Assembly: GCF_013167455.1 (NCBI RefSeq) | Contig: NZ_CP038328.1 | Source of the DNA: Escherichia coli O157:H7 | Lineage (GTDB): Bacteria; Pseudomonadota; Gammaproteobacteria; Enterobacterales; Enterobacteriaceae | DNA length: 64,000 bases | Reading direction: 5' to 3' (one strand) | Shown: piece after piece, positions 56,101 through 59,100 of the stretch | How the letters are laid out: every line of letters starts with the position of its first letter | Position numbering within the stretch: position 1 is the first letter of the stretch | Position numbers: made by a program

Positions 56101-59100
56101 GGCGGCGTTGTTTTCCTACATTTTCCCATCCTGATAATCGCCGCCTATGCGTTTAACACTGAAGATGCGGCGTTTAGTTTTCCACCGCAGGGCCTGACGC
56201 TGCGCTGGTTTAGCGTGGCAGCACAGCGTAGTGATATTCTTGATGCCGTGACACTGTCACTTAAAGTGGCGGCGCTGGCGACATTAATGGCGCTGGTGTT
56301 AGGGACGCTGGCAGCTGCCGCGCTGTGGCGACGAGACTTTTTCGGCAAAAACGCCATTTCGCTGTTACTGCTGCTGCCCATTGCGCTGCCGGGCATTGTC
56401 ACTGGTCTGGCGTTATTAACCGCCTTTAAAACCATCAATCTGGAGCCGGGATTTTTCACCATCGTGGTCGGTCATGCGACTTTTTGTGTAGTTGTGGTGT
56501 TTAACAATGTCATCGCCCGTTTTCGCCGCACCTCATGGAGTCTGGTTGAGGCGTCAATGGATCTTGGGGCCAATGGCTGGCAAACCTTCCGCTACGTAGT
56601 GTTGCCGAATCTCAGTTCGGCGTTACTGGCAGGAGGAATGCTGGCGTTTGCCTTGTCGTTCGATGAAATCATCGTTACGACCTTTACGGCAGGTCATGAA
56701 CGAACGTTACCGTTGTGGTTGCTCAATCAGCTTGGGCGACCGCGTGATGTACCGGTAACTAACGTGGTGGCACTGCTGGTTATGTTGGTAACAACCTTGC
56801 CGATCCTGGGAGCCTGGTGGCTAACCCGCGAAGGCGACAATGGTCAATAACCACTGATACAGGAATATGCTATGCAACATAAGTTACTGATTAACGGAGA
56901 ACTGGTTAGCGGCGAAGGGGAAAAACAGCCTGTCTATAATCCGGCAACGGGGGACGTTTTACTGGAGATTGCCGAGGCATCCGCAGAGCAGGTCGATGCT
57001 GCTGTGCGCGCGGCAGATGCAGCATTTGCCGAATGGGGGCAAACCACGCCGAAAGTGCGTGCGGAATGTCTGCTGAAACTGGCTGATGTTATCGAAGAAA
57101 ATGGTCAGGTTTTTGCCGAACTGGAGTCCCGTAATTGTGGCAAACCGCTGCATAGTGCGTTCAATGATGAAATCCCGGCGATTGTCGATGTTTTTCGCTT
57201 TTTCGCGGGTGCGGCGCGCTGTCTGAATGGTCTGGCGGCAGGTGAATATCTTGAAGGTCATACTTCGATGATCCGTCGCGATCCGTTGGGGGTCGTGGCT
57301 TCTATCGCACCGTGGAATTATCCGCTGATGATGGCAGCGTGGAAACTGGCTCCGGCGCTGGCGGCAGGGAACTGCGTAGTGCTTAAACCATCAGAAATTA
57401 CCCCGCTGACCGCGTTGAAGTTGGCAGAGCTGGCGAAAGATATCTTCCCGGCAGGCGTGATTAACGTACTGTTTGGCAGAGGCAAAACGGTGGGCGATCC
57501 GCTGACCGGTCATCCCAAAGTGCGGATGGTGTCGCTGACGGGCTCTATCGCCACCGGCGAGCACATCATCAGCCATACCGCGCCCTCCATTAAGCGTACT
57601 CATATGGAACTTGGTGGCAAAGCGCCAGTGATTGTTTTTGATGATGCGGATATTGAAGCAGTGGTCGAAGGTGTACGTACATTTGGCTATTACAATGCCG
57701 GACAGGATTGTACTGTGGCTTGTCGGATCTACGCGCAAAAAGGCATTTACGATACGCTGGTGGAAAAACTCGGTGCTGCAGTGGCAACGTTAAAATCTGG
57801 TGCGCCGGATGACGAGTCTACGGAGCTTGGACCTTTAAGCTCGCTGGCGCATCTCGAACGCGTCAGCAAGGCAGTAGAAGAGGCGAAAGCGACAGGGCAC
57901 ATCAAAGTGATCACTGGCGGTGAAAAGCGCAAGGGTAATGGCTATTACTATGCGCCGACGCTGCTGGCTGGCGCATTACAGGACGATGCCATCGTGCAAA
58001 AAGAGGTATTTGGTCCAGTAGTGAGTGTTACGCTCTTCGACAACGAAGAACAGGTGGTAAACTGGGCGAATGACAGCCAGTACGGACTTGCATCTTCGGT
58101 ATGGACGAAAGATGTGGGCAGGGCGCATCGCGTCAGTGCACGGCTGCAATATGGTTGTACCTGGGTCAATACCCATTTCATGCTGGTAAGTGAAATGCCG
58201 CACGGTGGGCAGAAACTTTCTGGTTACGGCAAGGATATGTCACTTTATGGGCTGGAGGATTACACCGTCGTCCGCCACGTCATGGTTAAACATTAAGGAT
58301 AATATTGCAGATCGTAAGAGTATGAGATGATCTTGCGTACTGTCAGAGCACTGATTTCTCTGACAGTACGTGCTGCGTGCAAAATCACTACATCAAATAA
58401 ACCAGCCAAATCTCATAGAGATAAGAGTAAACAAACCAACAGCAGCAAAGACATTTATCAGTACTACAGTTCTACTGGAAACATTCATTTTTGCCACCTT
58501 TTATCATTGCCCCTATGTGTATAGTACGGGTTAAGAAAATCCGCAATAATACTCATTCTGAAGATGGATAAGGGCAAGTTGCTGTTTGATGTTTTTTTCT
58601 CAAACCGGTTAAAAAACTTGATGCACGTCAAAAAATGACGCATATTTGCGCGCGTTTTATTCATCTGGCTGGACGCCCGTACATGTCTCTCTATCAACAC
58701 ATGCTTGTTTTTTATGCGGTTATGGCAGCAATCGCATTTCTTATCACTTGGTTTCTTTCTCACGATAAGAAACGCATCCGTTTCTTAAGCGCCTTTCTGG
58801 TGGGGGCAACATGGCCGATGAGTTTCCCGGTGGCGCTGTTGTTTTCACTGTTTTAAATCTTACTCACTGGCTTGACGGCACCACGCAGACTTATATCATT
58901 TGGATGAATCGATAAATTTCACAAGTGGCTAAGGAGAAAGTATGTCGCATCTGGATGAAGTCATCGCGCGCGTGGATGCCGCGATTGAAGAGAGCGTCAT
59001 TGCCCATATGAACGAATTATTAATCGCCCTGAGCGATGACGCGGAGTTAAGTCGGGAAGATCGCTACACCCAGCAGCAGCGTTTGCGCACCGCTATTGCT

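Follow-up and report, generated by a model that had tools for sequence, protein, structure and literature searches.

Work of Dar and Sorek (2018, NAR, PMC6061677) described Rho-dependent transcripts whose precise steady-state 3' ends lie right after stable stem-loops. The sequence downstream of these stem-loops is low in U and biased towards C over G (PMC6061677), and PNPase and RNase II generate the ends by shortening the diffuse tails that Rho termination leaves (PMC6061677). A second point of reference comes from Salmonella, where the orthologue of yncL is expressed as a 195-nt σS-dependent RNA that was originally named as the sRNA STnc1110. In the literature, YncL is a small membrane protein that is induced by stress and in stationary phase, depolarises the membrane and condenses the nucleoid, and OrtT is an orphan toxin that damages the membrane. 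YncL has already been detected as a tagged protein, functional studies of both YncL and OrtT are in print, and the divergent genes yncL and ortT are known to encode small proteins that depolarise the membrane. In Escherichia coli, a perfect inverted repeat lies between the convergent genes patD and yncL. To which of the two genes does it belong? Is it working as DNA or as RNA? Is it a terminator, or does it act on an RNA that has been terminated elsewhere? Published 3'-end maps and a comparison of related genomes address these questions, and the repeat is very probably the structure that defines the 3' end of the yncL mRNA. The hairpin and both small genes are ordinary, already charted features of E. 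coli; the 3' end of the hairpin has been present in public data, under a misleading label.

The yncL–ortT neighbourhood

The locus was analysed in a 64-kb stretch of E. coli O157:H7 DNA, referred to here as the window, in which the gene order of the relevant segment is ydcV-patD-yncL-ortT-ydcY-ydcZ-mnaT-curA. Over the 651-bp stretch used as a query, identity is 100% with strains 2017C-4109 and F690 and 99.2% with K-12-type strains, and MG1655 shares all 121 bases around the hairpin. Published coordinates can be converted as window = MG1655 − 1,458,706, an offset shared by patD and yncL. The initial annotation of the window had placed a 31-aa YncL on the minus strand and a 57-aa OrtT on the plus strand, and both assignments hold. 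The yncL coding sequence (58393–58488, minus strand) agrees with the RefSeq annotation of near-identical genomes; it is preceded by a Shine-Dalgarno sequence (AGGTGG) ending 6 nt ahead of the ATG, and its product, a small membrane protein, matches NCBIfam NF000537 over residues 1–30 of 30 with 72.5 bits (cut-off 35). Divergent from it lies ortT (58683–58856, plus strand), a GhoT-like orphan membrane toxin carrying the RefSeq product name ‘orphan toxin OrtT’ and matching Pfam PF10753 (Toxin_GhoT_OrtT) at E = 9.2e-28 over model positions 1–55 of 55. As had also been pointed out from the sequence, both genes are obscured in a mechanical ORF list, where yncL appears as a 34-aa GTG ORF and ortT is nested in a 73-aa ORF (58635–58856). 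The longer ORF is not the gene, because 80/80 related loci keep the ATG start of the 57-aa protein, with an in-frame stop at most 16 codons upstream of it in 30 of them.

Upstream of ortT, TTGATG and CATATT, separated by a 17-nt spacer (58618–58646, plus strand), are the sole invariant blocks in an intergenic alignment of 14 genera or species, and they constitute the predicted ortT promoter. For yncL, a σS SELEX peak has been reported in the E. coli yncL-ortT spacer (where the gene beside yncL is given as ydcX). A conserved block in this spacer, GTATAGTAC, contains the motif CTATACA (58518–58524, minus strand), a predicted σS-type −10 element of yncL that would place the transcription start near 58504–58514. 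RIL-seq fragments of yncL span 1517047–1517210 as one continuous short transcript, and 1517210 corresponds to window position 58504. Together with the 3' end discussed below, these positions suggest an E. coli yncL transcript of ~170–185 nt. The RIL-seq data also report abundant Hfq-associated chimeras of yncL RNA with McaS and FliX, and RprA and KilS are further reported partners. On the other side, yncL is convergent with patD (56872–58296, plus strand), which encodes γ-aminobutyraldehyde dehydrogenase. The terminator scan of the window strain gives no terminator-like structure of patD's own, and ExcludonFinder lists patD-yncL as a convergent overlapping transcription pair.

Structure, covariation and linkage of the hairpin

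The inverted repeat occupies 58336–58370, exactly where the initial annotation had put it, with a perfect 13-bp stem and a 9-nt loop; its arms, CGTACTGTCAGAG (58336–58348) and CTCTGACAGTACG (58358–58370), are complementary at 13/13 positions. It starts 39 nt past the patD stop codon (58294–58296) and ends 22 nt from the yncL stop codon (58393–58395). As RNA it folds with −22.5 kcal/mol on the plus strand and −21.6 kcal/mol on the minus strand (z-scores of −4.9 and −5.3), and 0/200 shuffled sequences were as stable. No longer perfect short-loop inverted repeat exists in the 64-kb window, which contains 4 with a stem of at least 11 bp against 0 in 20 shuffles. The stem has a G+C content of ~54%. 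The earlier statement that no U-tract follows the stem on either strand is confirmed by the tails, TGCTGCGTGC on the plus strand and CAAGATCATC on the minus strand: a U-tract starting 0–2 nt from the stem is absent from the window hairpin, there is 1 U in the 8 nt past the stem on the minus strand, and the minus-strand context (tail CAAGAUCAUC, upstream sequence GCACGCAGCA) has neither a U-rich tract nor an A-tract. A consensus terminator scan likewise returned nothing at 58336–58370. An Rfam scan of 58000–59300 at permissive E-values gave no family match and no STnc1110-type model. The window holds no second pair-forming copy of the hairpin within 2 mismatches, and among 5,426 complete E. coli genomes it counts as single-copy in 5,411 (a median of one place per genome and at most 2, over 5,411 genomes).

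Is the symmetry a property of the DNA or of the RNA? This was examined in an alignment of 24 distinct yncL 3' UTRs. RNAalifold returned 10 core pairs, and compensatory changes occur in 4 of these. When a 15-pair structure was considered, 84.4% of the cells were paired, compared with 34–51% when the partner was slid by 1–3 columns, and 7/15 pairs had changed on both sides. The covariation score was 0.238 as against 0.116 in shuffled alignments, and 0/500 shuffles reached 0.238. The arm that reads CGTACTGTCAGAG in the window E. coli and in K-12 reads CGCACTGTCAGAGAG or ACACACTGTCAGAGAG in other Escherichia, CTGGCAGAGAGA in Citrobacter and GTTGGCGGGGAGG in Salmonella, with pairing preserved throughout. 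The core of the arms, CAGAGAG / CTCTCTG, is conserved across genera, and loops of 3 to 9 nt occur among the loci. By these measures, evolution supports the folding of the inverted repeat as RNA. Where wobble pairs occur, in Salmonella and in the E. coli strain E29, they read G-U in minus-strand RNA, and in plus-strand RNA they would be A-C mismatches.

The linkage of the hairpin to its neighbours was followed through 80 loci with OrtT relatives, one genome per species, each checked for an adjacent yncL. The two genes adjoin in 26 of the 80 loci (Escherichia, Citrobacter, Salmonella, Intestinirhabdus and Pluralibacter), and a profile search for yncL beside ortT found none in Enterobacter, Kosakonia, Lelliottia, Pantoea and others. 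In 24 of the 26 yncL loci, a minus-strand hairpin follows the yncL stop codon at ~11–32 nt, and it stays with yncL in all the loci studied from Escherichia, Citrobacter and Salmonella. The linkage is kept whether patD is adjacent or 0.6–2.3 kb away (loci L002, L004, L014, L015, L026 and others). In one of these loci, L002 from an E. coli strain, patD is followed directly past its stop codon by a hairpin of its own with a T-tract; next comes a gene for a CatB-like acetyltransferase, disrupted by IS1, and last the conserved hairpin and yncL. The hairpin is part of the yncL unit and not of patD, because the linkage holds despite the genes inserted between patD and yncL. Its initial description as a hairpin ‘after patD’ has to be revised in this sense: its partner is yncL, on the minus strand, and the only RNA 3' end mapped there is on that strand.

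The 3' end of the yncL mRNA and its likely origin

In the Term-seq data of Adams et al. (2021, eLife, PMC7815308), a dominant minus-strand 3' end falls at 1517039 under each of the three growth conditions; two of its entries in supplementary file 1 have 75,265 and 536,300 reads, and the flanking sequence printed for this end terminates in ...CTCTGACAGTACGCAA (PMC7815308). Position 1517039 is 58333 in the window, 3 nt past the last paired base of the stem. The mapping of 3' ends, which had been proposed as a check on the hairpin, was thus already available in published data and gives a minus-strand end. With the yncL stop codon at 58393–58395, the mature mRNA ends at 58333 and has a 3' UTR of 60 nt (58333–58392, minus strand), within which the 13-bp stem and 9-nt loop (58336–58370) form the terminal structure. 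The PMC7815308 table labels this end ‘antisense to patD’, likely for the reason that it lies 60 nt past the yncL stop, beyond the 50-nt limit set for ‘primary’ ends. The same Term-seq tables contain no plus-strand 3' end near the hairpin (~1517076); patD may be too weakly expressed in the media used for such an end to be detected. The TERMITe supplements make no mention of the yncL 3'-end locus.

What happens beyond this end? Supplementary file 2 of PMC7815308 reports a bicyclomycin-sensitive Rho termination region with its peak at 1516753(−), that is, at 58047 in the window, antisense within patD and 286 nt downstream of the yncL 3' end on the same strand. Reads upstream and downstream of 1516753 are 220/9 in untreated cells and 106/72 with bicyclomycin (PMC7815308), and the published Rho score is 16.6 (p = 5e-21), a score that could be recomputed from these four counts; it uses 800-nt windows, so that the read-through could originate at the yncL promoter or at another antisense start inside patD. 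Read-through from yncL is the origin that we favour for these Rho-sensitive transcripts. Immediately past the mature 3' end lies a C-rich, G-poor tract (58273–58332, minus strand), a candidate rut site. The C/G count in the 60 nt past the stem is 14/7, and it lies between 12/6 and 22/6 in the other loci of Escherichia and Citrobacter; in 80-nt windows past the stem the ratio is a moderate 1.3–1.8, and antisense coding sequence may show such a bias anyway. A GATC(T/A)TC motif is conserved in this tract, and a GATCTTC(C/T)CAC block is kept beyond the mature 3' end. The tail is somewhat richer in U, UUAGAUCUUCUC, in other alleles from Escherichia.

These observations can be assembled into a mechanism which we consider probable as a whole. 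The inverted repeat would be transcribed within the yncL mRNA, on the minus strand, as the terminal stem-loop of a σS-dependent transcript of the length given above. RNA polymerase is expected to pass through the hairpin, because no U-tract follows the stem. Rho could then load on the untranslated C-rich, G-poor RNA just past it and terminate transcription diffusely within a few hundred nucleotides, on the strand antisense to the 3' portion of patD. The 3'-to-5' exonucleases PNPase and RNase II would trim the resulting tail until the stable stem-loop stops them, leaving the precise end 3 nt past the stem and a stabilised yncL mRNA. Of these steps, the trimming by exonucleases and the gain in mRNA half-life are proposed by analogy with transcripts in which such processing has been described; protection of the yncL mRNA at its 3' end by the hairpin is probable. 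Between a simple terminator and an RNA-stability element, the initial annotation had leaned towards the latter, and this guess appears to have been right. The U-richer tails of some Escherichia and the six U of Salmonella sit less easily with the model and leave room for some hairpin-driven termination.

Could the hairpin instead terminate transcription itself? It might be a non-canonical, U-poor terminator of yncL, perhaps bidirectional and helped by head-on collisions of polymerases, with 58333 as a slightly trimmed termination site. The stem is certainly stable, the orthologous Salmonella hairpin with its U6 resembles an intrinsic terminator, yncL of Pluralibacter is followed by a canonical bidirectional one, patD and yncL are listed as a convergent overlapping pair, and a collision-based model for bidirectional terminators has been published. 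Against this speak the single U in the 8 nt past the stem and the missing A-tract upstream, the negative consensus scan, a 3' end that falls 3 nt from the stem and outside any U-tract, the strong bicyclomycin-dependent read-through further downstream, and conserved sequence past the stem that is C-rich and not U-rich. Termination by the hairpin itself is accordingly held to be unlikely, and trimming back to the stem-loop after Rho termination is retained as the preferred account.

Two further explanations take the hairpin away from yncL altogether. In the one, it would serve patD as the 3' stabiliser or terminator of the plus-strand ydcSTUV-patD transcript. Its distance of 39 nt from the patD stop, a plus-strand fold that is equally stable (−22.5 kcal/mol) and the want of any other terminator-like structure behind patD in the window strain would fit such a role, but the hairpin stays with yncL when patD is 0.6–2.3 kb off, patD of L002 has its own hairpin and T-tract, the wobble pairs favour the minus strand, and the Term-seq tables have no plus-strand end near 1517076 (patD expression there being perhaps too low). 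We judge this reading to be improbable, and a patD terminator as the primary role was rejected on the linkage of the hairpin to yncL. The equally stable plus-strand fold makes a second, by-product role in protecting patD transcripts possible. In the other explanation, the repeat would be an element of the DNA, either an operator for a dimeric protein or a mobile or REP-like remnant, for which its perfect symmetry and the CAGAGAG / CTCTCTG core shared across genera could be cited. However, the half-sites lie 3 to 9 nt apart depending on the locus and compensatory changes are seen in the outer arms, both of which disfavour an operator of fixed spacing; a REP family would be expected to have many dispersed copies, and this element is single-copy in nearly all complete E. 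coli genomes, has no other copy in the window and no Rfam match; and an RNA 3' end maps exactly at the base of the hairpin. Operator, repeat family and mobile-element remnant were all rejected on these grounds, a DNA-level role being the least probable of the readings considered, and the suggestion in the initial annotation of a protein-binding element finds no support for the same reasons of covariation and variable spacing.

Two proteins that could act on such a structure were also considered. RNase III needs roughly two helical turns. It had come into question through changes of yncL mRNA in RNase mutants and was rejected as the 13-bp stem is too short. ProQ binding at the 3' hairpin was set aside as well: according to Stein et al. 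(2020), the FinO domain of ProQ specifically recognises RNAs with Rho-independent terminators, and the yncL hairpin is not one. A more speculative proposal concerns the transcript as a whole. The yncL RNA could be a long-lived dual-function RNA that titrates or regulates McaS, FliX, RprA and KilS in stationary phase, and putrescine catabolism might be tied to the making of YncL through read-through into patD that Rho controls. This proposal, which we think improbable, draws on a very abundant σS-dependent RNA of ~180 nt, an orthologue that was catalogued as an sRNA, the Hfq chimeras and the conserved U-less hairpin with its flanks.

Comparison with known systems

What does the locus add? A very strong Term-seq peak ‘antisense to patD’ can be reassigned to the yncL mRNA, and the 3' UTR of yncL is defined as 60 nt. 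The yncL hairpin is a clean case of a U-less 3' stem-loop, backed by covariation, at a gene end where Rho-dependent termination is indicated. The practical value is small and current understanding is left unchallenged.

The E. coli hairpin resembles a canonical intrinsic terminator in its position at the end of a transcription unit, ~22 nt past the stop codon, and differs from it in the 1 U per 8 nt of tail, the ~54% G+C stem, the end 3 nt past the stem and the negative scan. The situation is different in Salmonella, whose orthologues have 6 U in the first 8 nt past the stem, a U-tract by the definition used above; two Salmonella loci have the same hairpin extended by outer G-C pairs and followed by CUAUUUUUU, with C/G counts of 10/10 and 10/12 in the 60 nt past the stem and hence no C bias. 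To judge from its sequence, the Salmonella hairpin looks like an intrinsic terminator, and in Pluralibacter yncL has a textbook bidirectional terminator instead. The end of the yncL gene seems to use different modes of termination in related genera, and the orthologous hairpin, followed by a U-tract in Salmonella and by a C-rich tract in Escherichia and Citrobacter, offers a natural case for studying how such modes interconvert.

As regards the transcript itself, the ~170–185-nt E. coli RNA is similar in size to STnc1110, which in Salmonella is abundant, depends on σS and encodes YncL; the mechanism that makes the 3' end probably differs between the two, with a U-tract in Salmonella and none in E. 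coli. The locus is also reminiscent of an excludon, as patD and yncL are convergent, are listed by ExcludonFinder and show read-through, from yncL in our reading, antisense into patD when Rho is inhibited, but 37 nt remain between the end of the mature yncL mRNA and the stop codon of patD. The closest resemblance is to the transcripts of Dar and Sorek. Like these, yncL has a stem-loop with a precise 3' end a few nucleotides downstream, lacks both a U-tract and an upstream A-tract, has more C than G past the stem and is followed further downstream by a bicyclomycin-sensitive region, for which the 800-nt windows leave the origin of the transcripts unassigned. It stands apart from them in an unusually well-conserved hairpin, covarying across three genera, and in a Salmonella orthologue that has a U-tract. 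The yncL hairpin of E. coli is best read as a member of the class described by Dar and Sorek in 2018, from which its dependence on PNPase and RNase II and its stabilising effect would follow by analogy.

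Junctions immediately 3' of patD

In about one-fifth of the complete E. coli genomes the match to the window starts only at 58287 and the end of patD is recovered as a second, separate match, amounting to 1,171 extra places in 5,416 records. The junction is at window 58287-58296. In L002 (411-2500), a locus of E. coli DXMF6-3R, a gene for a CatB-related O-acetyltransferase, split by IS1, occupies the gap. The short repeat A(C/T)ATTAAG is common to both junctions, which suggests a deletion or an insertion between short direct repeats immediately after the patD stop. In other species the inserts at this position differ. 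Directly 3' of patD, this insertion-bearing strain has a hairpin, AGTGGC...GCCACT, with the tail ATCGTTTT (L002:421-452), which together form a terminator-like site; the window strain is without a site of this type after patD.

The divergent yncL and ortT genes

How is yncL expressed, and what does its mRNA bind? A conserved CTATACA (window 58518-58524, minus strand) fits a sigma-S-type -10 element, and this candidate agrees both with a sigma-S SELEX peak in the yncL-ortT spacer and with the sigma-S dependence of the Salmonella yncL transcript. Published RIL-seq and TRIC-seq tables list the yncL mRNA (window 58393-58504 on the minus strand, MG1655 1517099-1517210) as a prominent partner of several sRNAs, dependent on Hfq. 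McaS accounts for 716 chimeras with it in a single library; further partners are FliX, RprA and KilS. The products of yncL and of the divergent ortT are both membrane-depolarising small proteins.

On the ortT side, the sole invariant blocks of the spacer among the 14 genera or species compared are CTTGAT...TCA and GCATA. They fit a predicted plus-strand ortT promoter (TTGATG, a 17-nt spacer and CATATT; window 58618-58646), and the TTGA-N7-TCAA symmetry within them could be an operator. A weak plus-strand 3' end labelled 'orphan' (848 reads, LB OD 0.4) was mapped by Adams et al. (PMC7815308) to MG1655 1517357, window 58651, in the ortT promoter/leader region. A 4-bp CGCA/TGCG hairpin immediately precedes it; read on the minus strand, this palindrome is marked as terminator-like and has a T-run (58655-58638).

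Inverted repeats and the yncL end in other genera

Three further inverted repeats in the window (7178-7207, 16452-16481 and 23575-23601) have short loops and perfect stems, 11-12 bp long. The last, GATGTGGACTG...CAGTCCACATC, is followed by AAGATC without a U-tract, and so may be another Rho-type 3' stem-loop. The repeat at 16452-16481 looks like a bidirectional terminator: its 5' arm is A-rich, and a T-run lies on the plus-strand side.

At the yncL end of Intestinirhabdus (L009) no convincing hairpin was found, the CTCTCTGC remnant alone being kept. Pluralibacter, whose yncL is 46% identical, has a canonical A-tract/hairpin/U-tract bidirectional terminator there (L063:2685-2720). In Salmonella diarizonae and arizonae (L008:2629-2682 and its L012 equivalent) the orthologous hairpin has additional outer G-C pairs, a U6 tract after it and no C bias downstream; in contrast to its E. 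coli counterpart, it resembles an intrinsic terminator.
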